A stretch of DNA of 64,000 bases, from assembly GCA_034520945.1 (NCBI GenBank), contig JAXHNB010000005.1, positions 640,001 through 704,000 on the forward strand. Direction: 5' to 3'. Position 1 is the first letter of the stretch; each line of letters begins with the position of its first letter. Below are positions 7,642 through 30,605 of the stretch, one piece after another. Source of the DNA: Trueperaceae bacterium. Its GTDB lineage: Bacteria; Deinococcota; Deinococci; Deinococcales; Trueperaceae. The position numbers and the translations under genes were made by a program. The notes beneath the pieces are model-generated. The model was not told the origin of the DNA. It ran no database searches and worked only from the letters and a program-made list of their open reading frames with translations.

Positions 7642-7699
7642 CTCCTTTCGCCAGCGTTCGGCCCTTAGCGTACCGAACCGGTCGGACGGGCGGAAGGCC

Positions 7700-8767: not shown

Positions 8768-8823
8768 CGCCGCGCGCGTCCCACGGCCCACCAGCGCGTG
8801 CGTACGGTGTGTAGGCTACACAT
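8764..8823 (-). CDS. Putative leaderless uORF, MCSLHTVRTRWWAVGRARR (19 aa), coupled to ddl
   Basis: ATG 8 nt after TAGCAT -10; its TGA overlaps the ddl ATG (ATGA). Confidence 0.4.
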   Translation of the reverse strand: MCSLHTVRTRWWAVGRARR

Positions 8824-8831
8824 GATGCGTC

Positions 8832-8860
8832 ATGCTACGCCGGGGCCCGACCGGCGTCAA
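8832..8860 (-). promoter_or_regulatory. Sigma70-type promoter for ddl
   Basis: TTGACG-17nt-TAGCAT on minus strand. Confidence 0.7.
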
Positions 8861-9000
8861 GCGCACGCATGCTAGCGTGGCGCTGTCTGCACGATAGAGA
8901 ACGCTCGAGGCCGCCTCGTCGTCGTACGCTCAAGCCGTCCGTCTTGCGGCAGCTACGCGGCTGCTCGCTCGCCCCCCGCCCCCGAATTCGAGGAGGACCC

Positions 9001-14410: not shown

Positions 14411-16657
14411 TCAGTGCGACAGGCCGAAGCGGTCCGCCAGCCGGGCCAGCGGCGCCGGCAACCACCAGTTCAGCCGGCCCGCCAGCGTCATCACCGCGGG
14501 CACCAACGCCAACCGCACCAAGGTCGCGTCCAGCAGGATCGCCACCGCCAGGCCGACGCCGAGCGTCTTGATCAGCACCACCTCGCTGAAGAAGAACACG
14601 CTGAACACCACCAGCATCACGGTCGCCGCGCTGGTGATCACCCCGCCGGTGGTCTCGAGGGCGCTGGCGACGGCCTCGTGGTCCGACAGACCGCGTTCGT
14701 GCGCCTCGAAGATCCGGGCCACCAGAAACACCTCGTAGTCCATCGACAGGCCGAACACGATCGCGAACACGAACAGCGGCACGTTGGAGTCCACGATGCC
14801 CAGGCCCCCGTCGAGGCCCAGCAGCGGCGCGCCGACCCCCATCTGGAACACCAGCGTGATCACCCCGTACGACGCCGCCACCGTCAGCGCGTTCAGCACG
14901 ATCGACTTGATCGGGATCAGCACCGAGCGGAACGCCAGGCCCAGCAGCACCAGCGTCGCCGCGAACACCAACCCCAGCGTCAACGGGAAGCTGCTGTACA
15001 GCACGCGGCTCCAGGCGGCCTCGAACGCGGCGCTGCCGCCGATCTGCACCTCCAGGCCGTGCGACGCCGCCAGGCGCCGCGCCTCGGCCGCCAACCCGGC
15101 GCTCTCGGCCGGCGGCAGGTCACCGATCGGCACGACCTGCAGCTGTACGTAGCGCCCGTCCTGGCCGACGGTGGCGTCCACCAGCTCGGCGACGTCGCTG
15201 CTGCGGGCCAGGTCCTCGTCGATGTAGTACTGGAACAAAAACAACCGCGGCACGCCGGGCGCCGAGAACGGCGAGATCACCGAGCGCACCGGCTCCAGCG
15301 CCTCCAGGTCGCGGGTCAGGCGCGACACGCGACGCGGGGCGGACGGCCCGAAGAACCCCTCCTCGCCCATGTCCACCAGGACCGTGGTGGCGGACAGGAA
15401 CCCCCCCAGCTCCGCGTCCTCCAACGCCGTGACGGCCGTGCGCGCCTCGGTGCCGCGCGCCATGCCGCGCGGGCCGGGGTCGGCCAGCTGCATCCAAAAC
15501 GCTGGCAGCGCCAGCAGCACCAGCGCCGCCGTGCCCAGGACCGTGAACGTCCACGGCCGCGCCATGATCACCTCCGCCCGCCGCCGCCAGAACACGCGGG
15601 TCCTCGTGCCGGGCGTCCGGCGCGTCACCTTGAGCCAATCCACCCGGTGCCCCATCAACGCCAGCAGCGCGGGCAAGGCCGTCCAAGACACCAGGACGCT
15701 GGCACTCATCACGATCATGGTGCCCACGCCGACGCTGCGGACGTAGGGCAGCGGCGCGAGCAGCAACGCCGACAACGCCACCACCACCGTCAGGCCGCTG
15801 AAGGCCACCGCCTTGCCGGCGGTGGCGCCCGTCTCCTCGGCCGCGTCACGTGGGGTGCGGCCCGCCCGAAGCTCCTCGCGATAGCGGTTCACCGTCAACA
15901 GCGCGTAGTCGATCCCCGTCGCCAGGCCCAGCATGGTGACGATGCTCTGCGTGAACACCGCGAACGGGAACACCTGCCCCACCAGGAACACCCCGGCCAG
16001 CGCCACCGTGATGGTGGTCGCCGCCACCAACAACGGCAGGACCGACGCGACCAGCGCCCCGAAGGCTACGATCAGCACCAGCAGGCTGATCGGAAGCCCG
16101 AACGCCTCGCCGCGGCGCGTGTCCCGTGCGCTCACCTCCCGCAACTCCAACGTGGTGGCGGGCCCGCCGGCCATCGCCACCTCGAGCTCGGGCCTCGCCG
16201 CGGCCGCCTTGCGGATGGTCGCGACCGCCTGCCGCGCGGCGGTCCGATCCGGGCCGCCGAACGCCAGTTGCCCCAGAAAGGTGCCCTCCGCCGCGCGGGT
16301 CGGCACCAGGTCGCGGATGTCGCGCAGCGACGACACGGCGGGGAGGTGTCGCACGTCGGCGAGGAACGCGTCGAGGCGTGCCCGGTAGGCGTCGCTCTCG
16401 TCCGCGGCGCGGACGACGAGCACCACCGATACCGAATCGCCCCCCGAGAACTGGTCCGCCACGCGGGTCGCCACGCTGACCGCTTCCGTGTCGGCGCTCA
16501 GCGACGGCTCGGCGGTCAGCACCTCCCCGACGCGGGCGGCCAGCGGCAGGCTGAGCCCCAAAATCAACGCCCACAGGGCCAGCACGTAGCGCGGACGCCG
16601 CGCGGGAATGCGGGCCGCGCGCCTGAAGAAGCCGGTCGGGGGTCGTCCTGGGTTCAT
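14411..16657 (-). CDS. MMPL family (RND) lipid transporter
   Basis: GLATGIDYALL and FGLSMDYEVF D-Y pairs; two TM/periplasmic repeats. Confidence 0.92.
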   Translation of the reverse strand: MNPGRPPTGFFRRAARIPARRPRYVLALWALILGLSLPLAARVGEVLTAEPSLSADTEAVSVATRVADQFSGGDSVSVVLVVRAADESDAYRARLDAFLADVRHLPAVSSLRDIRDLVPTRAAEGTFLGQLAFGGPDRTAARQAVATIRKAAAARPELEVAMAGGPATTLELREVSARDTRRGEAFGLPISLLVLIVAFGALVASVLPLLVAATTITVALAGVFLVGQVFPFAVFTQSIVTMLGLATGIDYALLTVNRYREELRAGRTPRDAAEETGATAGKAVAFSGLTVVVALSALLLAPLPYVRSVGVGTMIVMSASVLVSWTALPALLALMGHRVDWLKVTRRTPGTRTRVFWRRRAEVIMARPWTFTVLGTAALVLLALPAFWMQLADPGPRGMARGTEARTAVTALEDAELGGFLSATTVLVDMGEEGFFGPSAPRRVSRLTRDLEALEPVRSVISPFSAPGVPRLFLFQYYIDEDLARSSDVAELVDATVGQDGRYVQLQVVPIGDLPPAESAGLAAEARRLAASHGLEVQIGGSAAFEAAWSRVLYSSFPLTLGLVFAATLVLLGLAFRSVLIPIKSIVLNALTVAASYGVITLVFQMGVGAPLLGLDGGLGIVDSNVPLFVFAIVFGLSMDYEVFLVARIFEAHERGLSDHEAVASALETTGGVITSAATVMLVVFSVFFFSEVVLIKTLGVGLAVAILLDATLVRLALVPAVMTLAGRLNWWLPAPLARLADRFGLSH

Positions 16658-17403
16658 CACACGCCGGCGAAGCTGGCGATGCGTGCACGCGCGCCTTCCT
16701 CCCGCGCATCCACCTCGCCCGCGACACTGCCGTCGCGGAGGAACACGATCCGGTCCGCCACCAAGGCGGCGTTCGGGTCGTGCGTGACCATCACCACCGT
16801 CCAGCCCTGATCATCGACGCCGTGGCGCAACAGGTCCAGCACCTCGCCCCCGGTGGCGGTGTCCAGGTTCCCGGTCGGCTCGTCCGCCAGCAGCAGCAGC
16901 GGGTCGTTGATCAACGCCCGCGCCAGCGAGACGCGCTGCCGCTGACCGCCCGAGAGCTGCGCCGGCCGGTGCGAGAGGCGGTCCTCGATGCCCAAGCGCC
17001 GCGCCAGCTCCGGCAGGCGACGCGCCGCCTCGGCGCCGCGACCCGCCACCTCGGCGGGAAGCAGCACGTTCTCGCGCGCCGTCAGGTTCGGGATCAGCTC
17101 GAAGGTCTGGAACACGAACCCGATCCGCTGCCGGCGCAGCAGGGTGAGCTGGTCGTCGTCCATGCCGCCCACGTCGGCGCCGCCGATACGCACGGTGCCG
17201 GTGTCGGGCGGCTCCAGCAGGCCCACCAGGTACAGCAGCGTCGACTTGCCGCTGCCCGAGGGGCCCATCACCGCAATGAACTCGCCGGGCGCGACCCGAA
17301 GCGACACGTCGCGAAGGGCATGGATGCGCGCCTCGCCCATGCGGTACGACTTGGCCAGCTCGCGGGCGTCCAGGACGAGGTCGTCGGGGGTGGGGCGCGT
17401 CAT
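16657..17403 (-). CDS. ABC ATPase, LolD/MacB-like
   Basis: GPSGSGKS, IGFVFQ, LSGGQRQR, LADEPTGNLD, VTHD. Confidence 0.93.
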   Translation of the reverse strand: MTRPTPDDLVLDARELAKSYRMGEARIHALRDVSLRVAPGEFIAVMGPSGSGKSTLLYLVGLLEPPDTGTVRIGGADVGGMDDDQLTLLRRQRIGFVFQTFELIPNLTARENVLLPAEVAGRGAEAARRLPELARRLGIEDRLSHRPAQLSGGQRQRVSLARALINDPLLLLADEPTGNLDTATGGEVLDLLRHGVDDQGWTVVMVTHDPNAALVADRIVFLRDGSVAGEVDAREEGARARIASFAGV

Positions 17404-19958
17404 TCGGTACCTCTCAGCGCGACGATGGGGGCCAGCCTCCCGGCGCGGCGGGCGGGCAAAAGCGAGGCGAGAAGCCCGACCGCGGGCGAGGCGGCCAGGG
17501 CGATCCCCACCAGCCGCCACGGCACCACGGGATCGATGGCGTAGCCGGTCAGCGCCGAGGCGCCGGCCGTCACGACATCGGCCAACAGCAGACCGAACGC
17601 CACGCCGAGAATGCTACCCGTGATCACCACCACGATGCCCTCCGCCATGACGACGCGTCGGATCCCCGCGCGGGTCATGCCGAAAGTGCGCAACATCGCC
17701 AACTCGCGACCGCGCACCACGAGGTTCATGCCCAACGTGTTGGCCACCCCCAGCGCGGCGATGATCACGGCCAGCACCAGCAGCATGTGGGTCGCGACGA
17801 ACGTGCGGTTGGACAGGGCGAGAATGCGATCCTGGTACGCCTGGTTCGGGGTGACGTCCAGGTACAGCTCGGGAAAGGCCGCGCCGAGGCGCTCCGCGAC
17901 CACGCCCGCCTCGCGCCCCTCCTCGACGGTCATCACGTACAGGTCGGGCGTGCCGCCCCCGAACCGTTCCATCTGCGCGATCGAGGCGACGAACGCCTCG
18001 CCGCCGCCGGTGAAGTCGACCACCACCCCGCCGACCTCGAACGTCTGGAAGCCCTCCTCGGTGCGGAGCTCGACCTCGCTGCCCACGCCGAGGTCGAAGC
18101 GCCTGCGCATGGTGCTGGCGGCCAGCACCCCGTCCGGCGAGGTGAGCGCCTGGTAGCCGGCCCGATCATCGCCTTGGCCCTGGACGTACTGGAAGCGACC
18201 GAACCCCTCGTCGGGGTGGAACCGGTCCGTGTCGACCAGCACCAGCGCCACAGTGCGGCCCCGCGGTTGGTCCTCGGGGCGGAAGCGGACGGCGCGAAGG
18301 CCCACCCCGGACACCACGTCGATCCCCTCGACCGCGCGGGCCCGCTCGGCGAACGTCTCTGGGAACGACACCGGCGACGTCACGAACAGGTCGCCCACCA
18401 CGGTGGTCTCCACCCAATCCTCGAGCTCCTGATTGATGCCGGCGATCAGCGCGCCGACGCCCACCACCAGGCCGGTCCCGATGATCACGGTGCCGATCGC
18501 GACGCCGTTGCGGCTGGCGCTGCGCTCCGCGAACGACGCGCCCAGCCGTCCCGCCACGCCCAGCACGCGCGCCAGGAGCGGCCCCATCACCCGCAGCGCG
18601 GGCCTGAGGAGGCTCTGCGCCGCCAGCGCCGTCCCCACCGCGAACGACACCATCGCCAGCCCGGCACCGGCCAGCGCGGCGTACCCCTCCCACGGAAGGC
18701 GCGTCACGATCACGGCCAGCGCCACCAACGCCCAACCGAGACCGGTACGGGCCGGCGCGGTGGCGGTGTCCGAGCGGCGCCACGCCGCCAGTGGCGAGTA
18801 CGCCGAGGCGCTGCGGGCCGGCAGCACCCCCGCCAGCAGCGACACGGCGAAGCCGAGCAGCACCGAGGCGATGACCGACCAGGCCGGCACCACCAACGTG
18901 TGCACCTGGTAGCCGAGGCCGACCGCGTTCACGCGGGTGAGGACCCACGCCAACGCCACGCCCATGGCGATCCCGACCCCCGCCCCCAGCGCGCTGAGGA
19001 GGGCGGCCTCGACCAGCGCCAGGCGCTGCACGTCGCGCCGGCGCATGGCGATGGTGCGCAACAGGGCGTACTCGCGGGTGCGTTCCACCACGCCGGCCAT
19101 GAAGGTGGCGTACGCCATGAACCCGCCCAACGCCAACAGGGTCACCGCCAGCACCAGCATCCCGGACTGCAGGGTCTGCACGATACCGCCGGCGACCTCG
19201 CCGGTTCCGGCCGGCGACGCCACCGCGTACGACGCGTCCAGGCGGGAGGTCAGGGCCTCTTTCACCTCCCGCGTGAGGGCACCGTCCGCCAGCAGCACCT
19301 CCAGGTGCGAGATGCGACCCTCCAGGCGCATCACCTCCTGCAGCGTCTCCAGGTGGGTGATGGCGACGCGCGCGCCGTTGGTGGCGGCGTAGCCTTCCGA
19401 TGCGTCCATCAGCCCGACGATCTCGAGGTCGACCTCCCCGAAGCGGGTCGCGAACGTCATCACGTCGCCGATCGCGAGATCGCGGCCGCCTGCGAACGCG
19501 TCGGTGATCGCCAGGGTGTCTTCGCCCGCCTCGGGCCACCGGCCCGCGGACAGCGTAGCGGGAAGGGCAGCCGGACGCTCGGTGTGGCGCCCGGACACCT
19601 GAAACCCGCTGTCGACGCCCGGCACGACCGAGCGTTCGAAGTCCTCGACGTCGCGCACCGGCTCGATCCGGACGTTGAGGACCGGTTCGAACCGCGCCAC
19701 GCCCGGCGTGCCGGCCACGCGCTCCCGCAGCGGCTCCGCCTCCATCACCGCGCGGCCCTGCGCACCGGGGGTGATCAACAGCTCCGCCGGGCCGGCCGCG
19801 GCCTCCAAGCCGGCCTGCACGTTGGCGCGGACGTTGGCGCCGACCGATAGAGTCGCCAGCACGGCGGCGATGCCCAGCGCCACGCCCAGGATGGTGGCCA
19901 GGGTGCGCCAGGGATGGCGAATCAGATTGCGCGCGGCCAAACGAAGCAGGATCGGCAT
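17400..19958 (-). CDS. Type VII (FtsX/MacB/LolC-like) ABC permease with duplicated periplasmic/TM modules
   Basis: RHPWRTLATILGVALG, ERTREYALLR, RGRELAMLRTFG, ASLLPARRA; ~850 aa. Confidence 0.9.
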   Translation of the reverse strand: MPILLRLAARNLIRHPWRTLATILGVALGIAAVLATLSVGANVRANVQAGLEAAAGPAELLITPGAQGRAVMEAEPLRERVAGTPGVARFEPVLNVRIEPVRDVEDFERSVVPGVDSGFQVSGRHTERPAALPATLSAGRWPEAGEDTLAITDAFAGGRDLAIGDVMTFATRFGEVDLEIVGLMDASEGYAATNGARVAITHLETLQEVMRLEGRISHLEVLLADGALTREVKEALTSRLDASYAVASPAGTGEVAGGIVQTLQSGMLVLAVTLLALGGFMAYATFMAGVVERTREYALLRTIAMRRRDVQRLALVEAALLSALGAGVGIAMGVALAWVLTRVNAVGLGYQVHTLVVPAWSVIASVLLGFAVSLLAGVLPARSASAYSPLAAWRRSDTATAPARTGLGWALVALAVIVTRLPWEGYAALAGAGLAMVSFAVGTALAAQSLLRPALRVMGPLLARVLGVAGRLGASFAERSASRNGVAIGTVIIGTGLVVGVGALIAGINQELEDWVETTVVGDLFVTSPVSFPETFAERARAVEGIDVVSGVGLRAVRFRPEDQPRGRTVALVLVDTDRFHPDEGFGRFQYVQGQGDDRAGYQALTSPDGVLAASTMRRRFDLGVGSEVELRTEEGFQTFEVGGVVVDFTGGGEAFVASIAQMERFGGGTPDLYVMTVEEGREAGVVAERLGAAFPELYLDVTPNQAYQDRILALSNRTFVATHMLLVLAVIIAALGVANTLGMNLVVRGRELAMLRTFGMTRAGIRRVVMAEGIVVVITGSILGVAFGLLLADVVTAGASALTGYAIDPVVPWRLVGIALAASPAVGLLASLLPARRAGRLAPIVALRGTE

Positions 19959-20050
19959 GGGATACGACTCTCCAGGCGGCGGGGCGCCGCCGACCGCACT
20001 ACTTGTACCATCGCGTCCCACGCCCCCCGTGCAGGCTAGGATGGCAGTCG

Positions 20051-21172
20051 ATGACCTTTGCGCTGGTCCTGCTCGTGCTCACCGCCTACGTGGGCGGCTT
20101 GGCCTGGTTCGCGCTGCGCTGCCCGCGCCTCCAACCGCGCGAGGCCGCCCCCGCGGACGCGGGGTGCGTGTCGGTGCTGATCCCGGCACGCAACGAGGCG
20201 CCCGCCATTGCCGGGGCCGTACGCTCGGCGCTGGACCAGGGCGCCGTGGTGGGCGAGATACTGGTGGTGGACGACGGTTCCACCGACGGCACGCCCGAGG
20301 TGGTGCGCGATCTTCATCGCCGGGAGGAACGCGTGCGGTTGCTGCAGTCGCCGCCGTTGCCGCCCGGCTGGCACGGCAAGGCGCACGCGTTGGCGCACGG
20401 CAGCGCCCAGGCCCACGGCGCCTGGTTGCTGTTCGTCGACGCCGACACGCGCGCGTCGTCGGGCGCGTTGGCGGCCAGCCTGGAAGAGGTTCGCCGTCAA
20501 AAGGCCACCTTTCTGTCGCTGTGGCCCCGCCAACGCACGGCGTCGTTCTGGGAGCGCGCCGTCCAACCGGTCGTGATCGGGATCACGGCGGTGGGCAACG
20601 CCCTCAGGCGCCTGTGGGGACCGCCGTTTCCCGTCGCGTTGTCGGCCTGGGGCGTGTTCATTCTGGTGCGTGCCGAGGCGTACCGGCGGGTGGGGGGGCA
20701 TGCCACCGTGCGCGACCGGATCCTGGAGGACAGCGAACTGTGCGACGCATTTCGCGCCGCCGGCGAGCACGCGGTGACCTTCGATGGGCACCGCCTGGTG
20801 TCGGTCCACATGTACGAGGGACTCGGCGATCTTTGGGAGGGATGGCGCAAGAACCTGTTTCCGAGCCTGGGGTCGTCCCTCATCGCCACCCTCGGGGTGG
20901 TCGCCTTCGTGCTGCTGGTCACCTGGGGCCCCGTGTTGGGCCTCGGGGCCGCCCTGCTCGGGGCGGGTCCGGCGTGGCCGTGGACGATTCCGCTGGCGCT
21001 CCAGGTGCTGGCTGCAGGGCCGTTGACCGCCCGGTTGGTGGACGCCCCGCCACTCCTGGCCGTGTCCCCGCTCGGGGGCGCTGTCTACGCCGCGATGCTG
21101 CTCGCGTCCGCGTACGCGCACGTCACGCGGCGGGGCGTGTCGTGGAAGGGCCGCAGCTACGGCGGGACGTAG
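20051..21172 (+). CDS. Membrane GT2 glycosyltransferase (lipid/carotenoid glycosyltransferase type)
   Basis: SVLIPARNE, VDDGSTDGT, GWHGK, FVDAD, LEDSEL, WRKN; N- and C-terminal TM segments. Confidence 0.88.
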   Translation: MTFALVLLVLTAYVGGLAWFALRCPRLQPREAAPADAGCVSVLIPARNEAPAIAGAVRSALDQGAVVGEILVVDDGSTDGTPEVVRDLHRREERVRLLQSPPLPPGWHGKAHALAHGSAQAHGAWLLFVDADTRASSGALAASLEEVRRQKATFLSLWPRQRTASFWERAVQPVVIGITAVGNALRRLWGPPFPVALSAWGVFILVRAEAYRRVGGHATVRDRILEDSELCDAFRAAGEHAVTFDGHRLVSVHMYEGLGDLWEGWRKNLFPSLGSSLIATLGVVAFVLLVTWGPVLGLGAALLGAGPAWPWTIPLALQVLAAGPLTARLVDAPPLLAVSPLGGAVYAAMLLASAYAHVTRRGVSWKGRSYGGT

Positions 21173-21236
21173 GGGCCCGCCTCGGGTGGGGCGCTTCAGG
21201 CAGCGTGCGGCCGGGGCTCCGCGGGCCGCGACGGAC

Positions 21237-22286
21237 TCATGTCGGCGGCGGGGCCTCGTCCGGTTCGTCAGGCCCGTCGACCTCGGCCGGTTCGTCCGGG
21301 CCCGCCGGCGGGCCGCCGTGCCGCGCCCACAGGTAGCCCCCCAGGGGCGGCCCGATCAGGAACAGGGCGTAGTGGCTGATCAAGCGCCACACCACCACCG
21401 CACCGACGACGCCGCCGCGCGCGCCCTGCGCCACCAGCGCCAGCGACGCCCCGAACTCGAAGAAGCCGCTGCCGCCGGGGGTGGGCACGACCGAACCCAA
21501 CCCGGCGACCAGCACCAATGCGGCGATGACCGTCCACGGGTCGACGGGCAGCCCGAAGCCGCGCGCGGACGCCCACAACACCGCGAAGAACGCCCCCCAC
21601 GACGCGGCCACCAGCAGGTGAAACCGCGCGTGCCAGCTCCACGGGGCGCCGTGCAGCAGCCCGTGCGCCTCCAGCAGGTTCGTCAGGAAGCGTTCCACCC
21701 CTTCGCGGTGGCGCGCGAGGCGGCCGCGCAACGCCCAGCGGGACAGCGGCAGCGCCCACGCCAGGCGGAAGGCCAGCAGGTAGGCGACGGCCAGGCCGCC
21801 CACGCTGACGATGAGCCCGGCGGTGCGCAGGACGACCGGGTTCGGCAGCGTGACGCTGCGGTCCAGCACCAGCAACGCCACGGGGAGCGACCAGCCGTAG
21901 AACACCGTGTCGGCGGCGATGGCGGCGACGCCGCTCGACCAGGCCGTTCCCGACGGCACGCCCTGGCGGGTCAGCGACAGCGCAAGCGCCGGCATGCCGC
22001 CGCTCCCGCCCGGCGTCACGGTGCTGGCGAACAACCCCAGCACGTGGCAGCGCACCGCGTGCCGCAGCCGCAGCGGCGCCCCGGTGCGCCGCACCAGCAT
22101 CGCCAGGCGCATCCCCGCGAACAGGAACGATGCCAACAGGAACCCCAACGCCGCCGCCAACCACGGCAGCTCGATGCGGGAGAGGTGCTGCAGCTCCTCC
22201 ACGCCGAGCCAGGCGACCACCCCCGCCAACGCGGCGCCGCCGATCAGGAACGACGCCACCAGGGCGCGGATCACCGTCCCTGTCAC
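21237..22286 (-). CDS. Flippase-like membrane protein (LPG-synthase TM / UPF0104 family)
   Basis: TPGGSGG, PTPGGSGFFE, VVWRLISHY motifs; GTGA coupling to upstream glycosyltransferase. Confidence 0.85.
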   Translation of the reverse strand: MTGTVIRALVASFLIGGAALAGVVAWLGVEELQHLSRIELPWLAAALGFLLASFLFAGMRLAMLVRRTGAPLRLRHAVRCHVLGLFASTVTPGGSGGMPALALSLTRQGVPSGTAWSSGVAAIAADTVFYGWSLPVALLVLDRSVTLPNPVVLRTAGLIVSVGGLAVAYLLAFRLAWALPLSRWALRGRLARHREGVERFLTNLLEAHGLLHGAPWSWHARFHLLVAASWGAFFAVLWASARGFGLPVDPWTVIAALVLVAGLGSVVPTPGGSGFFEFGASLALVAQGARGGVVGAVVVWRLISHYALFLIGPPLGGYLWARHGGPPAGPDEPAEVDGPDEPDEAPPPT

Positions 22287-23455
22287 GGAGATGCCTCGGC
22301 CGGGGTCAGGAACCGTCGCAGCAGCCACGACGCCACATCGGGGCCGCCGTTGCGGAGATCCAGGGCGGCGATGGCATGTCGCCAGCCGTCCAGAGCGTCG
22401 GGGTGGGCGGCGAAGCCGGCGATCAGCTCGGCCAGGGCCCGGGGCCGCCGCGCCAGGGTGCCGACGCCGGCGCGGACCACGTAGTCCGCGATCGCCTTCT
22501 CGTTGGCGGCGGCGTAGCCGGTGTGTACGACCGGCCGGCCGCTCAACAACGCCTCGAAGGTCGACGCCGGCCCCGCCTTGCCGATCAGCAGGTCGGCGGC
22601 GCAGGTGAGGCGCCGCATGTCGCTGCGGAACCCCAACGGCACCACGCGGGTCGGCCCCTCCTCCGAGGCGTCACGCGCCAGGCGGGCGCGCAGCGCCTCG
22701 TTGCGGCCGCACGCCGCCAGCACGGTGACGGGGACGCCCTGGGCGCGAAGGCGGGCCACGGTGGCGTGCAGCGGCCCGCCGATCCCCTCGCCTCCGGCCG
22801 ACCACAACACCGTGAATCGCCCGGGATCCAAGGACAACGCCCGCCGCGGCGCGGCGGCGTCCGGACAGGGCCCGTCGAACTCGGGACGCGCCACGAAGTC
22901 GAAGCGGGCGATCTTGTCCTCCGGGACGCCGTGGCGGGCCAGGTCGGCGGCGGCGCGGCGGCTGAACACCACCATGGCGTCGACGTGCGGTTCGGCCCAC
23001 AAGGCGTGGGCGTCCATCGCGTCGGGGTTCACGCCCACCACCGGGACGTTCAGGCCGTGGCGCCGCCGCGCCAACGCCAGCGCCTGCACCGTGAAGAAGT
23101 GGGTGGCCACGACCAGGTCGAAGCGGTGCGTCCGCAGGTACGCCGCGGCGTGGCGGGCGTGCGCCGCCAGCATGGCGCCCTGCACGGCGCGGCTGATGCG
23201 GGCCGGCACCACCTCGTCCAGGGCGCGCTGTCCCAGGTAGGCGGCGGCCGGTGCGCGCAGCATCCAGCGCCAGGACGCCTTGTGCCGCCGGTCCAGGCCC
23301 GTGTCGCCCACCGCGGCGGTGAAGTCCAGCACGGCGCTGTCCACGCGGCCCGGCGCTTCGCGCTCGACCCACGCCGACAGCGCCTCCGCCGAGGTTCGGT
23401 GCCCGTTCCCGACGGTGATCATGGCGAACAGGACGCGGGGTCGGCCCGCGCTCAC
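22283..23455 (-). CDS. GT28 glycosyltransferase (MGDG synthase/UgtP-like); candidate ceramide glycosyltransferase
   Basis: VGNGH, VATHF, HALW, SAGGEG, CGRNEAL, LGF, KAGPASTFEA. Confidence 0.85.
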   Translation of the reverse strand: MSAGRPRVLFAMITVGNGHRTSAEALSAWVEREAPGRVDSAVLDFTAAVGDTGLDRRHKASWRWMLRAPAAAYLGQRALDEVVPARISRAVQGAMLAAHARHAAAYLRTHRFDLVVATHFFTVQALALARRRHGLNVPVVGVNPDAMDAHALWAEPHVDAMVVFSRRAAADLARHGVPEDKIARFDFVARPEFDGPCPDAAAPRRALSLDPGRFTVLWSAGGEGIGGPLHATVARLRAQGVPVTVLAACGRNEALRARLARDASEEGPTRVVPLGFRSDMRRLTCAADLLIGKAGPASTFEALLSGRPVVHTGYAAANEKAIADYVVRAGVGTLARRPRALAELIAGFAAHPDALDGWRHAIAALDLRNGGPDVASWLLRRFLTPAEASP

Positions 23456-24438
23456 ATCCATCCCTGTTGGGCGTACCACGCGGCCGTGGCCCGCGCCCCG
23501 TCCGCCAACGCGGTGGGCGCGGTCCACCCGAACGCGTCCATGGTCGAGGCGACCTCGGTGGTGTAGCTCCGTTCCGCCAGGTCGCGTGCGCGGCGAAGGT
23601 CCAGCTCGGGGGCGGTGCCGCGCAGCCACGCCCAGGTCTCGCTGGCGTAGGCGGCGAAGCGGAACGCGACCGGCGGGAGGTGCACCGTGCGCACGGCGTC
23701 GCGGCCGACCGCGGCGGCGAGGAGCGCCGGCAGGTCGCGCCAGGCGTATGCCCGTGGTTCGGCGACCGGCCAGGGGCCGAAGCCGGTCGCATCGGACGCC
23801 AACACGCGGGCCACCAGCTCGGCGACGTCGTCGACGTAGACCGGCTGCACCCGCCCGCCGCCCGGGGGGAGCGCCAGCACGCCGCGGCGCGCCAGCGCGA
23901 ACAGGGGCAGCAGGTCGCGGTCGCCCGGGCCGTACACGGCGCTGGGCCGCAGCGACGCCGCCCAGCCCGCCGGTGCGAGCGCCTGCACCTGCCGCTCCCC
24001 CTCTAGCTTGCTGCGGGCGTAGGCGCTGCGCGGCGCGTCGCCCGGGCTGGCCCGCACGGTCGTGCCCGCGTCGCCGGCGACCGGGTCCGGGCCGCGGGCG
24101 GCCAGGCTGCCCAGGTACACGAACCGCCCGGCGCCTGCGTCCAGGGCGGCACGCGCCAGGCGGGCGCTGCCGTCCGCGTTGGCGGCGTGCAGCGCCGCCT
24201 CGCTGCGGGCGCGGGTCAGGCCGGCGGCGTGCACCACCGCGTCCACGCCGTGGCAGGCCGCCCGCAGCGCCGCCTCGTCCGACAGGTCGGCCAGGACGTG
24301 CTCGGCCGGAACCCCCGCCAGGCGCCCGGCATCGCTGCCGCGGCGCAGGGTGACGCGCAGCGCCACGCCGCCTTGTGCCAGGCGGGCCGCCACCCGCGCG
24401 CCGACGAAGCCGGTCGCGCCCGTCAGCAGCACCTTCAC
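23452..24438 (-). CDS. Extended SDR / NAD(P)-dependent reductase; candidate ceramide reductase (CerR-like)
   Basis: TGATGFVG, HAAGLTRA, SLAA, YARSK, RPSAVYGPGD; in operon with spt and bCerS. Confidence 0.75.
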   Translation of the reverse strand: MKVLLTGATGFVGARVAARLAQGGVALRVTLRRGSDAGRLAGVPAEHVLADLSDEAALRAACHGVDAVVHAAGLTRARSEAALHAANADGSARLARAALDAGAGRFVYLGSLAARGPDPVAGDAGTTVRASPGDAPRSAYARSKLEGERQVQALAPAGWAASLRPSAVYGPGDRDLLPLFALARRGVLALPPGGGRVQPVYVDDVAELVARVLASDATGFGPWPVAEPRAYAWRDLPALLAAAVGRDAVRTVHLPPVAFRFAAYASETWAWLRGTAPELDLRRARDLAERSYTTEVASTMDAFGWTAPTALADGARATAAWYAQQGWM

Positions 24439-24466
24439 GGCCCGATCGTCCCGGCGTGCCGGCGCG

Positions 24467-25576
24467 TCACAGCGCCTTCTGGTACAGGCGGTAGGTCTTG
24501 TACACCTCGGCGCCCAGCAGCCGCAGGCCCTTGTTGATCGGCTCGTTGTCCTCCAGGATCCAGGACAGCTCCGCCTGGCGGTAGCCCGCCACCTCGCCGC
24601 GGCGCCAGATCTCGTCGATCAGCACCAGCTCCAGGCCACGATTGCGGTGGGGCGGAAGCACGCCCAGCAACGCCAGGCGGAGCTGGTAGATGATCCGTTT
24701 GCGGCGCAGCAACGGCACGATCCCGAACGGCACGATCCGCCCGTGAAAGCGGGCCAGCACCTGGTTCAGGTTCGGCAGCGCCAGGGCCATGCCGACCACC
24801 TCGCCGTCCAGTTCCAGGAACAGCACGATCCGCGGGTCCAGCACCATTTTGAGGGTGTCGGCCAGGTGCGCGAACTCGGCGTCGGTGTAGGGCACCTGGC
24901 CCCAGTTGTCCTCCCAGGCCTGGGCGTACAGGCGGTGCACCGTGGCCAGTTCATGGTCCCAGTCCTCCAAGCGCACCTGCCGCACCACTGCGCCGGTGCG
25001 CCGCCGCGCGCGTTCCGCCAACCGCACGAACCGCTCGGGGATGCCGTACTCGCTGCGCGCCTCCCAGGCGCAGAGGTCCTTCACCTTGGCGAAGCCGCGG
25101 GCTTCGACCCAGGCGGGATACGAGGGGGGGTTCCACGGCATCATCACGTACGGCGGCAGGTGATGCGCGTCCACCTGCAGCCCGGCGCTGTCGTTCAGTG
25201 ACGGGTTGGCCGGCCCCCGCAACGCCGTGCGGCCCAGCGCCCGCGCCCGGTCCTCGGCGGCGTCCAGCAAGGCGGCGGCCACCTCCTCGTCCTCGGCCTC
25301 GAAGAAGCCGAAGAAGGCGAGGTCGTCGCCGTGAATCCGGTTGTGCAGGTCGTCGTCGATGACGGCGACGCGCCCCACCGGTCGTCCCGACCGTTCGGCC
25401 AGGAACAGGTCCATGCGGGCGTGCTCGAAGAAGGGGTTGCGCGTTTCGTCCAACGTCTCGCGTTCGGCCATGCGCAGTGGCGCCACGAAACCGGGCGTGC
25501 CGCGGTGCAGGCGCACGGGCAGGTCCAAGAAGCGCGCCCGGTCGCGGCGGCCCTCGGCGCGCCGTACGGTGGTCAC
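24467..25576 (-). CDS. GNAT-fold acyltransferase, bacterial ceramide synthase (bCerS/YghO-like)
   Basis: NPFFEH, GRVA, FGFFE, RGP.N, MMPWNPPSY, NWG, LPNLN, ELSWILEDN, KTYRLY family motifs. Confidence 0.8.
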   Translation of the reverse strand: MTTVRRAEGRRDRARFLDLPVRLHRGTPGFVAPLRMAERETLDETRNPFFEHARMDLFLAERSGRPVGRVAVIDDDLHNRIHGDDLAFFGFFEAEDEEVAAALLDAAEDRARALGRTALRGPANPSLNDSAGLQVDAHHLPPYVMMPWNPPSYPAWVEARGFAKVKDLCAWEARSEYGIPERFVRLAERARRRTGAVVRQVRLEDWDHELATVHRLYAQAWEDNWGQVPYTDAEFAHLADTLKMVLDPRIVLFLELDGEVVGMALALPNLNQVLARFHGRIVPFGIVPLLRRKRIIYQLRLALLGVLPPHRNRGLELVLIDEIWRRGEVAGYRQAELSWILEDNEPINKGLRLLGAEVYKTYRLYQKAL

Positions 25577-25660
25577 GGGCGTGGTCCCGCCACGCGCGGC
25601 GACGGTCCCCCGCGGCGCTCGGCGGGCGAGGGGGCGCGCCGGGTGGGGCCGGGCCGCGGG

Positions 25661-26917
25661 TCAGACCACGCCAAGGGCGCGCCCGACCCTCTCGAAGGCT
25701 TCGAGCAGTTGGTCCAACTGTGCATCGGTGTGGTTCGCGTTCACGCTGGTGCGAATGATCGACTTGCCCTGCGGCACGCCGGGAGGCAGGGCGGGGGTGG
25801 TGAACACGCCCGCGTCCCACAGGCCGCGCCAGAACCGCATGGTGGTGTCGTCGTCCCCGATCAGGGCCGGCACGATCGGGGTGCGGCTCCCCAGCGTGTC
25901 GAACCCAAGGCCATCCAGGCCGGTGCGGAGCTTGGCGACGTTGTCCCACAGCCGGTCGCGGTGCCACGGTTCGGTCTCGATGATGTCCAGCGCCTTCAGG
26001 GCGGCCGCCATCTGCATGGCGGGCAGCGCGGCGGTGAACATGAACGGCCGGGCATGGTGCTTGACGTAGTTCACGACCTTGGCCGGGCCCGCCATGAACC
26101 CGCCGACCGATCCGAACGCCTTCGAGAAGGTGCCCACGATCAGGTCCACCTCGGCCTCGAGGCCGAAGTGTTCGGCGGTGCCGCGCCCGTGGGCGCCCAG
26201 AACGCCGGTGGCGTGCGCATCGTCCACGATGAGGCGGGCGCCGTACCTTCGCGCGACCTCGACCAGTTCGGGCAGCGGCGCCACGTGACCGCTCATCGAG
26301 AACACGCCGTCGGTGACGATGATGCGGCCGCCGGGGCGGTCGACGTCCCGCTCCAGCAGGCGAGCGAGGTCGTCGACGTCGCCGTGGTCGTACTTGCGCA
26401 ACGACCCGAAGCTCAGCCGGGCGCCGTCGTACAGGCAGGCGTGGTTCTCGCGATCGAAGTACAGCACGTCGTGTCGGCCCGCCAGCGCGGCGATGACCGC
26501 CAGCGCCCCCAGGTAGCCGGCGCTGAAGGTCAGCACCGACTCGCGCTGCAGGAACACCGCCAGGCGTTGTTCCAGCGTGTGATGCAACGACAGCGTCCCC
26601 GTCAGAAAGCGCGAGCCGGTGCAGCTGGTGCCGAACCCGTTCAGCGCGTCGCGGGCCGCGGTCTTGAGGCGCTCGTCCTGCGTCAGCCCGAGGTAGTCGT
26701 TCGAGCCGGAAATCACCATCTCGCGGCCGTCGACGACCACCGTGCCGCCCTGCTGGGACTCGATCACCTTGAAGTAGGGGTGCAGCCCCGCCCGTTCGGC
26801 CCATTCGGCGCGCGTGAACGCGAACGCCTTGGCGAACGCGTCCTCGGCGGCACGCCCATCGGCGCCGGTGCGCTCGGGATGTGCGGTCGTCGGGGAAAAC
26901 TCGCGAGCGTCAGACAA
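25661..26917 (-). CDS. spt: PLP-dependent alpha-oxoamine synthase, serine palmitoyltransferase-like
   Basis: TTG start after GGAGG; GLHPYF, GSNDYLGL, GTSCTGSRFLTGT, NHAC, DDAH, GTFSK (PLP Lys), FTAALP, PPGVP..IIRTS. Confidence 0.8.
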   Translation of the reverse strand: MSDAREFSPTTAHPERTGADGRAAEDAFAKAFAFTRAEWAERAGLHPYFKVIESQQGGTVVVDGREMVISGSNDYLGLTQDERLKTAARDALNGFGTSCTGSRFLTGTLSLHHTLEQRLAVFLQRESVLTFSAGYLGALAVIAALAGRHDVLYFDRENHACLYDGARLSFGSLRKYDHGDVDDLARLLERDVDRPGGRIIVTDGVFSMSGHVAPLPELVEVARRYGARLIVDDAHATGVLGAHGRGTAEHFGLEAEVDLIVGTFSKAFGSVGGFMAGPAKVVNYVKHHARPFMFTAALPAMQMAAALKALDIIETEPWHRDRLWDNVAKLRTGLDGLGFDTLGSRTPIVPALIGDDDTTMRFWRGLWDAGVFTTPALPPGVPQGKSIIRTSVNANHTDAQLDQLLEAFERVGRALGVV

Positions 26918-26955
26918 GAAGGCCTCCAGCGCCGGTCGCCCCCGGCGAACGGGGC

Positions 26956-26964
26956 ATGATAGCA
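26956..26964 (-). promoter_or_regulatory. Extended -10 promoter of spt operon
   Basis: TGcTATCAT on minus strand ~40 nt upstream of TTG start. Confidence 0.5.
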
Positions 26965-27099
26965 CGCACCCATCGACGTTCCGTGTGGGCGGATCGTCCA
27001 GGGACGCCGGCTCGGCGTGACGGGGACGCGCCCCGCCGGCGCTGCCCGGCCGTTTCCGGCACGTGCCGTGCGGCGCGGCACCCGGCCGCTGGCAGCCGG

Positions 27100-27105
27100 T
27101 ATAAT
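27100..27105 (+). promoter_or_regulatory. -10 element for GNAT gene
   Basis: Consensus TATAAT 45 nt upstream of ATG 27151. Confidence 0.55.
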
Positions 27106-27150
27106 CAAAGCAGTGAACGGATTCGATGCGATTTCGTCGAAGGGGGGACG

Positions 27151-27702
27151 ATGGAAGCTTCCGCCCAGGTGACGGCGCCTGGCGTGTCGTTGCGGCCCAC
27201 GGGGCCGGACGACACCGAGCGCGTCCACGCCCTGTACCTGTCGGTTCCCAGCTACTTCGACGTCCTGAACGCGCCCGTGCCCTCCGCCGAAGAGGTCCGG
27301 ACCGAGCTCGAGGCGGCCGCGGGCGATCCAAGGCGCCGCACCGAGCTGATCTTGTTGCACGACGACCCTTCGCCGGCCACGCCGGACCCGGACCCGCACA
27401 CCGGGGCATGGGTGGCGGGCTACCTGGATGTCACCCTCGACTACATCGAGGAGGGGGACGCCACCGTCAACCTGTTGCTGGTGCGCACCGACCTGCAGCG
27501 CCGCGGCATCGGCGCGGCCTGCATGCGGGCGTTGGAGGAGCGCCTTCAGGGGCGGGCGACCCGTGTCTTGGCCAGCGTGTACGGGAGCAACCCCGGGGCG
27601 CGGCGGTTCTGGCATCAGCTCGGCTACCGGTTCGCCATCGATGCGGCGCCGGTATTGGCGTGGTACGCCAAGCGGATCGTGCCCTCGGCGACGCCCGGCT
27701 GA
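27151..27702 (+). CDS. GNAT family N-acetyltransferase
   Basis: LLLV..DLQRRGIG acetyl-CoA motif; N.GARRFW..LGY. Confidence 0.85.
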   Translation: MEASAQVTAPGVSLRPTGPDDTERVHALYLSVPSYFDVLNAPVPSAEEVRTELEAAAGDPRRRTELILLHDDPSPATPDPDPHTGAWVAGYLDVTLDYIEEGDATVNLLLVRTDLQRRGIGAACMRALEERLQGRATRVLASVYGSNPGARRFWHQLGYRFAIDAAPVLAWYAKRIVPSATPG

Positions 27703-27832
27703 GGCGGGTGCGGCGGCGCGACACGTGCCCCGGGCCGGTCGGGACGGCCGGGGGCGAGGTGATAGACTGCGCCAGACGAACCGTGCATGTGTCGGGCGCG
27801 TGCGCGCCCGTTTCCAGTGGAGGCAACCTCTG

Positions 27833-28389
27833 ATGATCAGTGTGACGGATTTGCGGGGCGGTACCAAGGTCGAGATGGACGGGGGGCTCTGGGAGTGCCT
27901 CGAGTCCCAGCACCAGAAGATCGGTCGGGGTGGGGCCAAGGTGGTCGCGAAGTTCCGCAACCTCGAGACCGGCGCCACCAAGGATCGCACCTTCAACGCA
28001 GGCGACAAGCTGCAGGACGTGTTCATCGACTACCGGCCCATGCAGTACCTGTTCCACGACGGCGACCTGTACACCTTCATGGACACGGAGACCTTCGAGC
28101 AGCCCTCCCTGAGTCGTGCGCAGCTCGGGGACGCCGCCAAGTGGCTGAAGCAGAACACCGAGGTCACGGTGGACTACCATCGCGGCAAGCCGCTCAAGGT
28201 CACCCTCCCGAACGTCGTCGAGGTCACCGTCACCGAGACGGACCCCGGCATGAAGGGCGACACCGTCTCGGGCGGCAGCAAGCCCGCCAAGGTCGAGACG
28301 GGCGCGACGGTGTCGGTGCCGCTCTTCCTGGAGCAGGGCACCGTGATCAAGGTGGATACGCGCACCGGCGAGTACCTAGGAAGGGCCTG

Positions 28390-28390
<1 letters not shown>
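27833..28390 (+). CDS. efp: Elongation factor P
   Basis: [31 protein letters not shown]. Confidence 0.97.
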
Positions 28391-28881
<491 letters not shown>

Positions 28882-28884
28882 GCC

Positions 28885-30219
28885 GTGTTCAAGAAGATTC
28901 TCATCGCCAATCGGGGCGAGATCGCGCTCCGGATCCTCCGCGCGGCGCGCGAGTTGGGCGTCCGGACGGTGGCGGCCTACTCCGAGGTGGACGTGAACAG
29001 CCTGCCGGTGCTGTTGGCGGACGAGGCGGTGTGCATCGGGCCCACCCGCGCGAGCGGGTCGTACCTCAACGTGCGCAACCTCCTGTCGGCCGCCCTGGTG
29101 ACCGGGTGCGAAGCGGTCCATCCCGGCTACGGCTTCCTGGCCGAGAACGCCGAGTTCGCCGAGAAGTGCGAGGAGCACAACCTGGTGTTCATCGGGCCGC
29201 GCCCGGAGACGATCCGCCGCATCGGCGACAAGGCCAGCGCACGGGCGTTGGCGCAGGAGGCGGGCGTGCCCCTCACGCCCGGCTCGGGCGCGCTGACCGA
29301 CGTGGAGGATGCGCGCCGCTACGCGGACGACATCGGCTACCCCGTCATCCTCAAGGCGTCCGCCGGCGGCGGGGGGCGCGGCATGCGGGTGGCGCAGAGC
29401 GGCAAGGACCTCGAGCGGCAGTTCGTCCATGCGCGCGAGGAGGCGCGCGAAGCGTTCGGGAACCCGGAGATGTACCTCGAGAAGTACCTCGAAGAGCCCA
29501 AGCACGTCGAGATCCAGGTGTTCGGGGACGGCGAAGGGAACGTGATCCATTACTTCGATCGCGACTGCTCGATCCAGCGCCGCTACCAGAAGGTCCTGGA
29601 GGAGGCGCCCAGCATCCTCGACCCGGGCTTGCGGCACGACATCGCCGAGGCGGCGGTATCGCTGGCGCGGCACATCCACTACCGCGGGGCCGGCACCTGC
29701 GAGTTTCTGGTCGACAAGCACGGCGCCTTCTTCTTCAGCGAGATGAACACGCGCATTCAGGTGGAACACCCCGCCACCGAGTTGGTGACGCGGTCCGACC
29801 TGGTGCGGGAGCAGTTCCTGGTCGCCGCCGGCGAGGGGATGTCGTGGACGCAGGACGACGTGCGCGTCGAGGGGCACGCGATCGAGGTCCGCATCAACGC
29901 GGAGGACCCTGACCGCGATTTCCGCCCGTCGGCGGGGACGGTGACGGACGTGCACTGGCCGGGCGGGCCGGGCATCCGGGTCGATTCGCACATCTACGCC
30001 GGGTACCGTGTGCCGCCGAGCTACGACAGCCTGATCGCCAAGATCCTCTCGTGGGCGCCCGATCGGGAGCGCGCCATCGCCCGCATGGAGCGCGCCTTGC
30101 GGGAGACGGTGATCGAGGGCGTGACCACGACCATTCCGTTCCACTTGCGGGTGTTGGACAATGCCTTCTACCGTAGGGGCGCGGTGTACACCAACTTCAT
30201 CGCGCGCAGGCTCACCTGA
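28885..30219 (+). CDS. accC: Biotin carboxylase
   Basis: IANRGEIALR, HPGYGFLAEN, GGGGRGMR, EMNTRIQVEH. Confidence 0.97.
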   Translation: MFKKILIANRGEIALRILRAARELGVRTVAAYSEVDVNSLPVLLADEAVCIGPTRASGSYLNVRNLLSAALVTGCEAVHPGYGFLAENAEFAEKCEEHNLVFIGPRPETIRRIGDKASARALAQEAGVPLTPGSGALTDVEDARRYADDIGYPVILKASAGGGGRGMRVAQSGKDLERQFVHAREEAREAFGNPEMYLEKYLEEPKHVEIQVFGDGEGNVIHYFDRDCSIQRRYQKVLEEAPSILDPGLRHDIAEAAVSLARHIHYRGAGTCEFLVDKHGAFFFSEMNTRIQVEHPATELVTRSDLVREQFLVAAGEGMSWTQDDVRVEGHAIEVRINAEDPDRDFRPSAGTVTDVHWPGGPGIRVDSHIYAGYRVPPSYDSLIAKILSWAPDRERAIARMERALRETVIEGVTTTIPFHLRVLDNAFYRRGAVYTNFIARRLT

Positions 30220-30236
30220 TGCGGGGAGAGGATGCC

Positions 30237-30605
30237 ATGCCGACCAAGCCGGTCACGACCGACGTCGGACAGGACGTGCTGTTCGGGATCGCCCAGCTCG
30301 CGTTGGAACGGGTGGACGGCCTTCGGCCGTTGGCGCCGCCGGCCCGCGTGGGCGAGTTCCTGACCGGTCGGCGCGCCAAGGGGATGCGGGTGGAACGCAG
30401 CGGCGACGTGGTCGAGATCGATCTCAACGTCACCGTCCGGTACGGTCTGGAGATCCCCAAGCTCGCGGCCCGCGCGCAGAAGGTGGTGCGCGAAGCGGTC
30501 GCCTCGATGACGGGCCTCGACGTGCGCGCCGTCCGCGTGAACGTGGTGGGGATCGACCTGTCGCAACGTCCATCGGACGACGAGGTGGAGGACGCCGGTG
30601 GCTAG
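30237..30605 (+). CDS. Asp23/Gls24 family protein
   Basis: VRYG..IP...QK.VREAV..MTGL.V..V.VNV; conserved accC-asp23-nusB context. Confidence 0.88.
   Translation: MPTKPVTTDVGQDVLFGIAQLALERVDGLRPLAPPARVGEFLTGRRAKGMRVERSGDVVEIDLNVTVRYGLEIPKLAARAQKVVREAVASMTGLDVRAVRVNVVGIDLSQRPSDDEVEDAGG

Follow-up and report, generated by a model that had tools for sequence, protein, structure and literature searches.

The 64,000-nucleotide (nt) window analysed here (positions 640001-704000 of contig C5 in genome G000, a 3.47-Mb assembly of 10 contigs, 97% complete and with 5% contamination) carries a row of five minus-strand genes, listed in Table 1, which is discussed here as a candidate sphingolipid operon. 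The first three genes encode an alpha-oxoamine synthase resembling serine palmitoyltransferase (SPT), a GNAT-type N-acyltransferase and an extended short-chain dehydrogenase/reductase (SDR). An earlier reading of the window, made from the letters alone (hereafter the sequence-only reading), had placed a complete three-gene ceramide pathway at 23452-26917. The three consecutive minus-strand genes were borne out by the list of open reading frames, and the motifs quoted for them are present in the translations: GLHPYF, GTSCTGSRFLTGT and GTFSK in the synthase, and HAAGLTRA, SLAA, YARSK and RPSAVYGPGD in the SDR. The trio was thus confirmed, but the unit is longer than had been proposed, a glycosyltransferase and a flippase-like gene downstream having gone unnoticed. 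The gaps within the trio are short (84 nt between synthase and GNAT, 28 nt between GNAT and SDR), and the ATG of the glycosyltransferase gene (23461) overlaps the SDR stop codon (23452-23454) by 10 nt. The synthase starts at an in-frame TTG at 26917, with GGAGG upstream at a 5-nt spacing. A RimI-like GNAT gene, divergent to the synthase, is kept in related genomes. No match to a sigma-70 or terminator consensus was found in window 20900-27300, and therefore a promoter in the intergenic region upstream of the synthase is only presumed.

Table 1. Features of the candidate sphingolipid operon and its surroundings (positions in the window)
Feature	Position	Strand	Characteristics
Spt-like alpha-oxoamine synthase, 418 amino acids (aa)	25661..26917	-	TTG start, pyridoxal phosphate (PLP) lysine K266
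bCerS-type tandem-GNAT N-acyltransferase, 369 aa	24467..25576	-	YghO homology, tandem-GNAT fold model
CerR-like extended SDR, 328 aa	23452..24438	-	Epimerase family; GATGFVG, YARSK
Monogalactosyldiacylglycerol (MGDG)-synthase-like (GT28-type) lipid glycosyltransferase, 392 aa	22283..23461	-	MGDG_synth + Glyco_tran_28_C
Flippase-like membrane protein (LPG_synthase_TM), exact start uncertain	21237..22328	-	PF03706, TIGR00374
Divergent intergenic region between synthase and RimI-like GNAT gene; presumed promoter region	26918..27148		
Possible export module, tentative association	14411..20021	-	Domain hits and position

In order to relate the three proteins to characterised ceramide enzymes, E. 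coli and Sphingomonas orthologues were used as anchors, standing in for the Caulobacter proteins. The E. coli record contains genes for a fatty acyl-AMP ligase, an epimerase-family SDR, an acyl carrier protein and an aminotransferase, divergent from yghO; that of Sphingomonas parapaucimobilis contains an NAD(P)H-binding protein, an acyl carrier protein and an aminotransferase, with the N-acetyltransferase ~6 kb off. According to PMC9386255, the N-acyltransferase genes yghO (ECD_02850), CC_1154 and Swit_3908 and the dehydrogenase genes ECD_02852, CC_1164 and Swit_3897 ('epi') are required for dihydroceramide. When the anchors were searched against genome G000, each led to the window. The best match of the E. 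coli and Sphingomonas SPT was the window synthase (38% and 37% identity, 5e-70 and 1e-77), the other paralogue, a Kbl, coming second (2e-40 and 2e-52). E. coli YghO and the Sphingomonas N-acetyltransferase had the window GNAT as their sole match, in both cases over the full length (YghO at 29.7% identity over 377 aa, 2e-46; the N-acetyltransferase at 3e-44). The CerR-type anchors of both organisms had the window SDR as best match (7e-23 and 6e-25), ahead of the runners-up (7e-8 and 5e-6) by 15-19 orders of magnitude.

The synthase belongs to PF00155 (Aminotran_1_2, 196.7 bits), and among NCBIfam models the CFB-type serine palmitoyltransferase, NF047600, fits it best. Among proteins of solved structure its best relative is the SPT of Sphingobacterium multivorum (3.6e-104; PDB 3a2b, 8guh), followed by Thermus BioF/Kbl (~1e-85), Sphingomonas SPT (~1e-80), a cysteate acyltransferase (1e-74) and then Kbl. 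The catalytic set aligned, window residues K266, H159, D232 and H235 corresponding to K244, H138, D210 and H213 of the S. multivorum enzyme. All 15 active-site and pocket residues checked, as given in PMC10196870, are identical in the window synthase (N52, G80, S81, F83, L84, H138, S185, D210, A212, H213, T241, S243, K244, M271 and F272, in S. multivorum numbering). Two neighbouring positions differ, N117 being replaced by Ala138 and S140 by Cys161.

These two replacements bear on the amino acid that is condensed. An enzyme using glycine, alanine or another amino acid in place of serine would yield an N-acyl amino-alcohol lipid of 1-deoxy or some other atypical kind, not a true ceramide. It would fit the Ala138 replacement, the presence at Cys161 of the residue type of cysteate acyltransferases (PMC13692747), the failure to reach any SPT equivalog cut-off, and the acceptance of alanine and glycine by SPTs, at low efficiency, described in PMC10196870. 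We nevertheless consider a non-serine substrate improbable. The residues of the network that holds the serine carboxylate and hydroxyl (N52, G80, S81, H138, S243, M271) are kept, and the two replaced positions also vary inside the SPT-like clade described below: among its 76 members the first is N in 45, C in 15, A in 10, S in 4 and G in 2, and the second S in 53 and C in 23. Equivalents of the cysteate-specific Ala82, Ala249 and Lys280 are absent, and the C1 hydroxyl expected from serine would be the natural acceptor for the coupled glycosyltransferase. Synthesis of a sulfonolipid from cysteate was rejected on the same residues, since the window enzyme has S102, S265 and A296 where Ala82, Ala249 and Lys280 are expected (PMC13692747).

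The sequence-only reading had called for a phylogeny of the synthase against BioF, Kbl and HemA. In a quick maximum-likelihood tree of 85 rows, from which HemA and CqsA were left out, the window synthase fell in a clade of 76 (SH-aLRT support 98) that comprises all GNAT-linked synthases together with the E. coli and Sphingomonas SPT anchors; the part of that comparison concerning SPT, Kbl and BioF thus came out as expected. Outside the clade lie E. coli Kbl and BioF, the Kbl of G000, three enzymes of BioF/Kbl type that come from other families of the phylum, and three odd sequences from other phyla. The nearest neighbours from outside Deinococcota are Myxococcota and Streptomyces sequences (support 87). 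The residues G101-S102-R103, S265 and A296 are present in 76/76 clade members, whereas Kbl has S-V-R, G and N. The second synthase of G000, on contig C6, is a true Kbl (657 bits vs a cut-off of 493), and because the genome holds this separate Kbl, the window synthase counts as an additional paralogue.

Autoinducers are also among the products of alpha-oxoamine synthases, and the CqsA-type model gave 211.6 bits on the window synthase. The trio might accordingly produce a diffusible small molecule, such as an acyl amino-ketone or amino-alcohol signal or a secondary metabolite, instead of a membrane lipid; the related cluster of a Streptomyces is followed by a condensation-domain protein. This explanation appears very improbable. 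The CqsA score lies far under those of the SPT models, and the cluster is a near-constant trait of its family, situated beside housekeeping genes, with the genes for a lipid glycosyltransferase and a flippase-like membrane protein coming after it.

The GNAT gave only a weak Acetyltransf_1 match in Pfam; the NCBIfam scan returned no model, the PDB contained no sequence match, and the protein atlas placed it in generic GNAT clusters only. It belongs to a large family, for which 7141 clusters were counted at E<=0.001 and 1114 clusters at E<=1e-30 among 50%-identity representatives. The sequence-only reading had assigned it to the family annotated as YghO or 'dATP pyrophosphohydrolase', and these names were indeed found among its relatives, the former in E. 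coli and Pseudomonas and the latter in Roseomonas. The AlphaFold model shows a tandem-GNAT fold with a confidence (pLDDT) of 94.6. Among solved structures, the folds closest to it belong to the clavulanate-pathway tandem GNAT, to MAB_4324, to a glucosamine N-acetyltransferase and to mycothiol synthase, all of them small-molecule amine N-acyltransferases, so that the modelled fold is compatible with acyl-CoA-dependent N-acylation of a sphingoid base. When 106 members of the family were placed in a tree, those from Deinococcota came together in a single clade (support 98); 70 of the 106 have a synthase gene within 3 kb.

The SDR matches the Epimerase family (PF01370, 110.5 bits), with the Rossmann motif GATGFVG and the catalytic YARSK. 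A branch with support 96 divides the tree of 63 SDRs. It places the window SDR together with the two anchors and with SDRs that are linked to the cluster in other phyla, and sets them apart from a second SDR type and from the paralogue of the window's own genome. Within the first group, the window protein joins SDRs from Rubrobacter, two other genomes of the family and Gemmatimonadota (support 99). We conclude that it is probably, although this is not proven, a member of the CerR family, which from its context would reduce the 3-keto group of either an oxidised ceramide or 3-ketosphinganine.

Linkage of these genes outside the phylum was analysed by a pattern scan of species-representative genomes, which gave 80 loci in many phyla (Gemmatimonadota, Binatota, Eiseniibacteriota, Zixiibacteriota, Myxococcota, with Archangium gephyra, Ignavibacteriota, Planctomycetota, Bacteroidota, Acidobacteriota and others). 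The flanks contain a synthase in 57 of the 80 loci and both a synthase and an SDR in 44; one locus has an SDR only, and 22 have neither, several of these lying on contigs of just 3-5 kb.

Inside the phylum, 364 genomes were scanned, among them the window's family (f1, 127 genomes), a second family of the same order (f3, 19), f6 (1) and three other families (f2, f4 and f5, 216 together). The tallies include the unpublished genome G325, which counts as one genome in each, and related genomes are not independent. The GNAT (E<=1e-20) was found in 104/127 genomes of the window's family, 19/19 of the second and 1/1 of f6; the corresponding figures for the synthase (E<=1e-95) are 98/127, 18/19 and 1/1. 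Neither was found in any of the 216 genomes of the three other families. In the window's family both genes occur in 97 genomes, the GNAT alone in 7, the synthase alone in 1 (at a contig end) and neither in 22. Five of the seven GNAT-only genomes gave only weak hits (E 2e-51 to 4e-71; G295, G321-G324); of the other two, G327 is 70% complete, and G358, with a strong hit, is 91% complete. In the window's genus, six of the ten genomes have both genes and four, which are 89-98% complete, have neither. Truepera radiovictrix carries homologues of both GNAT and synthase. In one genome of the family (G337:C8:2887-3972) the GNAT match is broken by ten stop codons (6 TGA, 1 TAG, 3 TAA) and is apparently a decayed copy.

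Gene order varies. Among 20 loci of the family and order that were compared, 14 from the window's family (13 relatives plus the window) hold adjacent synthase and GNAT genes. In genomes of the second family (L022-L024, L032, L126-L129) the two genes are unlinked, lying ~0.9 Mb apart on one complete contig. Clustered and dispersed layouts coexist, therefore, inside one phylum, and the dispersed one resembles that of the Bacteroidota sphingolipid producers, whose three genes are not clustered according to PMC11334938.

This distribution also bears on another possibility. Deinococcus and Thermus are known for alkylamine phosphoglycolipids, and the reaction of an oxoamine synthase could in principle start an amine-bearing long alkyl chain, so that the genes might make the alkylamine moiety of such lipids. 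This is hardly credible, as both synthase and GNAT are missing from the 216 genomes of f2, f4 and f5, families that comprise the groups with a BioF/Kbl type as best synthase. In the control genomes of D. radiodurans and T. thermophilus, matches to the SPT model stay under its cut-off.

The organism had been taken for a probable member of Deinococcota, and this agrees with the database matches. The nearest named homologues of the GNAT come from a 'Trueperaceae bacterium' (75% identity), Truepera radiovictrix (59%) and a 'Deinococcota bacterium' (54%). The neighbouring AccC shares 87% identity with a protein of a 'Trueperaceae bacterium', and its remaining named matches are from Trueperaceae or Deinococcales. 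Because the nearest named relatives of both proteins belong to Trueperaceae, G000 is assigned to that family. Upstream of the operon (27800-32340) lies a housekeeping block comprising efp, accB, accC, a gene termed NusB-like on its sequence alone, folD and a DUF212 (divergent PAP2) gene, and since this block adjoins the operon, the cluster is considered native to the chromosome. Contamination of the metagenome-assembled genome as its source was judged unlikely, given the neighbours efp, accB, accC and folD and the synteny with relatives.

The glycosyltransferase that follows the SDR has the domain make-up of MGDG synthases. Its solved relatives are Arabidopsis MGD1 (2.9e-24, near full length) and the processive diacylglycerol beta-glucosyltransferase (1.2e-13). 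The flippase-like gene matches PF03706 (105 bits) and exceeds the cut-off of TIGR00374, 'flippase-like domain' (69.3 bits vs 43.2), and it comes after the glycosyltransferase in related genomes too. The glycosyltransferase (E<=1e-25) occurs in 97/127 genomes of the window's family, 4/19 of the second family and 1/1 of f6; it is absent from all 216 genomes of f2, f4 and f5, and present as a single copy in G000. In the window's family it accompanies the GNAT in 93 genomes, while 11 have the GNAT without it, 4 have it without the GNAT and 19 have neither. None of the 80 loci of other phyla contains a homologue of the glycosyltransferase or of the flippase-like protein, and the head-group module is for this reason regarded as lineage-specific.

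One important question is whether these two genes act on the product of the trio. It is conceivable that the trio makes ceramide while the glycosyltransferase and the flippase-like protein serve ordinary synthesis of a glycosyl-diacylglycerol and just happen to lie in one operon with other genes for membrane lipids; the trio would then end in ceramide that is free or modified in some other way. This division is favoured by the transferase's solved relatives, which act on diacylglycerol and not on ceramide, as do the 11 family genomes with GNAT but no transferase, the 4 with the opposite combination and the lack of the transferase in all 80 other-phyla loci, Rubrobacter having an LTA-synthase-family gene at that place. 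On the other hand, the transferase is coupled to the SDR by the 10-nt overlap, its position downstream of synthase and GNAT is kept in most loci of the family, and its distribution follows theirs: it is missing from f2, f4 and f5, it is gone from the same four congeners that lack synthase and GNAT, and G000 has no second copy. We regard a separate glycosyl-diacylglycerol function as unlikely, although of some weight.

The family varies in its reduction step, because most relatives carry a different SDR (type 2) and an Rce1-like protein at the position of the window SDR. These two genes, the latter of the CAAX protease family, lie between GNAT and glycosyltransferase at L015 (10619-14685) and at L017, L019, L020, L027-L030, L033 and L034, of which L030 belongs to the window's own genus. 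The usual order in the family is the divergent RimI-like gene, synthase, GNAT, Rce1-like protein, type-2 SDR, sometimes UDP-galactopyranose mutase, glycosyltransferase, flippase-like gene and MacB/FtsX permease. The mutase was found in three loci of relatives, a hint of a galactofuranose head group in these organisms. A genome search of G000 gave no homologue of the type-2 SDR, the Rce1-like protein or the mutase.

Taken together, the anchor homology, the trees, the linkage in other phyla and the co-distribution within the phylum support the proposal of the sequence-only reading that this organism makes ceramides. We consider it likely that the five genes form an operon for a sphingolipid, and the pathway is probably real and functional, with a glycosylceramide as its likely product. 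In the first step, the Spt-like PLP enzyme would form 3-ketosphinganine by condensing L-serine and a long-chain acyl-CoA. The tandem-GNAT bCerS-type enzyme would then N-acylate the amine with a second acyl-CoA, and the CerR-like SDR would reduce the C3 ketone with NAD(P)H, giving dihydroceramide. The order given to the last two reactions is borrowed from Caulobacter, where N-acylation is placed before reduction but is still debated (PMC11324152). We hold with good confidence that these three steps would yield a ceramide backbone. The MGDG-synthase-like transferase, translationally coupled to the SDR, would subsequently place a hexose from a UDP-sugar on the C1 hydroxyl of the ceramide, and the flippase-like protein would carry the glycolipid across the inner membrane; for glycosylation and flipping the chances seem to us evenly balanced. 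Substrates and products are all proposed; the observations behind them are the identities and relationships of the proteins, the arrangement of the operon, the linkage kept in other genomes and the joint distribution of the genes across the phylum. If the organism resembles T. radiovictrix, the acyl chains are probably iso/anteiso C15-C17 (PMC3072082). The polar lipids of that species are described as an uncharacterised mix of glycolipids and phospholipids (PMC3072082), which leaves room for glycosphingolipids among them.

Several points weigh against this interpretation, in addition to those given above for the transferase. The synthase remains under every NCBIfam cut-off for SPT (424.5 bits vs 640 for NF047600, 391.5 vs 500 for NF047599 and 301.5 vs 670 for NF047603), and the BioF and Kbl models follow at a short distance (397 and 387 bits). 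The Caulobacter control matches NF047603 and likewise fails that cut-off. Synthases were picked for the tree by their nearness to a GNAT, which makes the clade of 76 a biased sample. The GNAT is only ~30% identical to the anchor bCerS orthologues, and its tree was rooted on the two anchors, not on an independent outgroup. The SDR resembles the CerR anchors about as strongly as it matches, below threshold, the HpnA (109 bits) and OleD (93 bits) profiles, and a single paralogue from its own genome served as outgroup in its tree. When the best six candidates per genome were scored, the window-type SDR (E<=1e-25) was found in just 15/127 genomes of the window's family (16/19 in the second family), the majority of relatives having the variant pair in its place. 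Finally, no sphingolipid from Deinococcota, Truepera or Trueperaceae is reported in the papers that were searched.

Past the operon, a MacB/FtsX-type duplicated permease (17400-20021, 873 aa), an ABC ATPase (16657-17520) and an MMPL protein (14411-16660) lie in a row which may be a lipid export system, its link to the pathway being positional; an FtsX permease is found just past the cluster in 9 of the 14 synthase-GNAT loci of the family. A GT2 glycosyltransferase gene (20003-21172, plus strand) is convergent with the operon. Its product shows sub-threshold likeness to HpnB and CruG (carotenoid 2'-O-glycosyltransferase), and may act in the glycosylation of pigments or hopanoid-like compounds, not in that of the sphingolipid. 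Elsewhere in the genome (G000:C6:573105-573860) an LpxC homologue exceeds the Pfam cut-off with 187.9 bits, and a weak LpxB-like match lies ~3 kb off. No match to LpxC was obtained in the control genomes of Deinococcus radiodurans and Thermus thermophilus, and the window's family may have lipid A genes missing from its better-known relatives. The idea that a glycosphingolipid replaces lipopolysaccharide is unsupported, given the LpxC homologue in G000.

The elucidation of ceramide synthesis in bacteria is recent, and chemical confirmation exists for only a few phyla. The pathway itself is already known; what is new here is a taxonomic member with a lineage-specific glycosyltransferase/flippase extension, which would be a new variant if confirmed. 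PMC11334938 gives the pathway as earlier inferred in 9 phyla and extends it to about 40 by prediction; 'Deinococc' occurs 0 times in its main text. The fullest version of our interpretation is a tentative one, to which we give somewhat less than an even chance. It states that Trueperaceae make hexosyl-ceramides family-wide by means of an MGDG-synthase-type transferase, with galactofuranose possible in the relatives that have the mutase, with their own flippase-like protein and perhaps a MacB/MMPL exporter, and with the reductase swapped within the family, a canonical CerR-like SDR (as in the window) alternating with an unrelated SDR plus an Rce1-like membrane protein (as in the majority). To our knowledge, such a transferase would be unrelated to the ceramide glycosyltransferases of Caulobacter and Bacteroides. 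If this is true, the uncharacterised 'complex glycolipids' of T. radiovictrix would be partly glycosphingolipids, the first sphingolipids in Deinococcota. (Glyco)sphingolipids would then occur in a deep-branching, stress-tolerant lineage with a cultured and sequenced type species, and the cluster would supply a candidate new ceramide glycosyltransferase and flippase. The family would also offer a natural experiment in reductase replacement, besides an example of a whole cluster moving by plasmid into Rubrobacter. As regards annotation, the bland names foreseen in the sequence-only reading are those that relatives actually bear ('PLP-dependent aminotransferase', 'hypothetical protein' or 'GNAT', and 'NAD(P)-dependent oxidoreductase' or 'epimerase'). 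Triplets of the type 'PLP-dependent aminotransferase / hypothetical or GNAT / NAD-dependent epimerase' can conceal a lipid pathway.

Comparison with characterised systems places the cluster as follows. Caulobacter crescentus uses the same three enzyme families, namely Spt (CC_1162), bCerS/CerS (CC_1154) and CerR (CC_1164) (PMC11324152, PMC9386255), and the identity of the window proteins to the pathway anchors is just 30-38%. The layout differs, the window having one operon in the order synthase-GNAT-SDR. Caulobacter also has AcpR (CC_1163) and AasR (CC_1165), whereas tblastn of the E. coli and Sphingomonas AcpR against G000 found no homologue, and AasR gave merely a weak match (5e-12) on another contig. 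Hence, the cluster is not of the Rhodobacteria type, which depends on AcpR and AasR, and for the same reason the thioester donor is probably acyl-CoA. The SPT of Sphingobacterium multivorum, the closest solved relative of the synthase, is likewise acyl-CoA-dependent (Bacteroidetes/delta-proteobacteria type); the window enzyme shares all of its checked active-site residues and differs in having Ala for N117 and Cys for S140. In the case of the E. coli anchor, the record NZ_MG591698.1 (L119) is labelled as a 353-kb plasmid, while glcDEFGB and an extra lptF/lptG around the yghO cluster look chromosomal; the record may represent a piece of a chromosome entered under the label of a plasmid.

MGDG synthase and UgtP-type transferases have the same two domains as the window glycosyltransferase, MGDG_synth and Glyco_tran_28_C, although the window protein scores far under the NCBIfam cut-offs (66.8 vs 500). 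These enzymes act on diacylglycerol; the ceramide acceptor suggested here derives solely from the operon context. The order synthase-GNAT-SDR of the window is repeated identically on plasmid 1 of Rubrobacter radiotolerans and on a plasmid of Streptomyces sp. NBC_01001. The gene that comes after the trio differs in each, being of the LTA-synthase family in Rubrobacter and a condensation-domain protein in Streptomyces, as against the glycosyltransferase and flippase-like genes in the window. The Rubrobacter cluster (L117, positions 6707-12299 of the plasmid) encodes proteins with 71% (synthase), 52.5% (GNAT) and 47.5% (SDR) identity to those of the window, and in the synthase and GNAT trees its proteins nest inside the window's family. 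This suggests that the whole cluster was transferred between two radiation- and desiccation-tolerant lineages, Rubrobacter and the family to which the window belongs.

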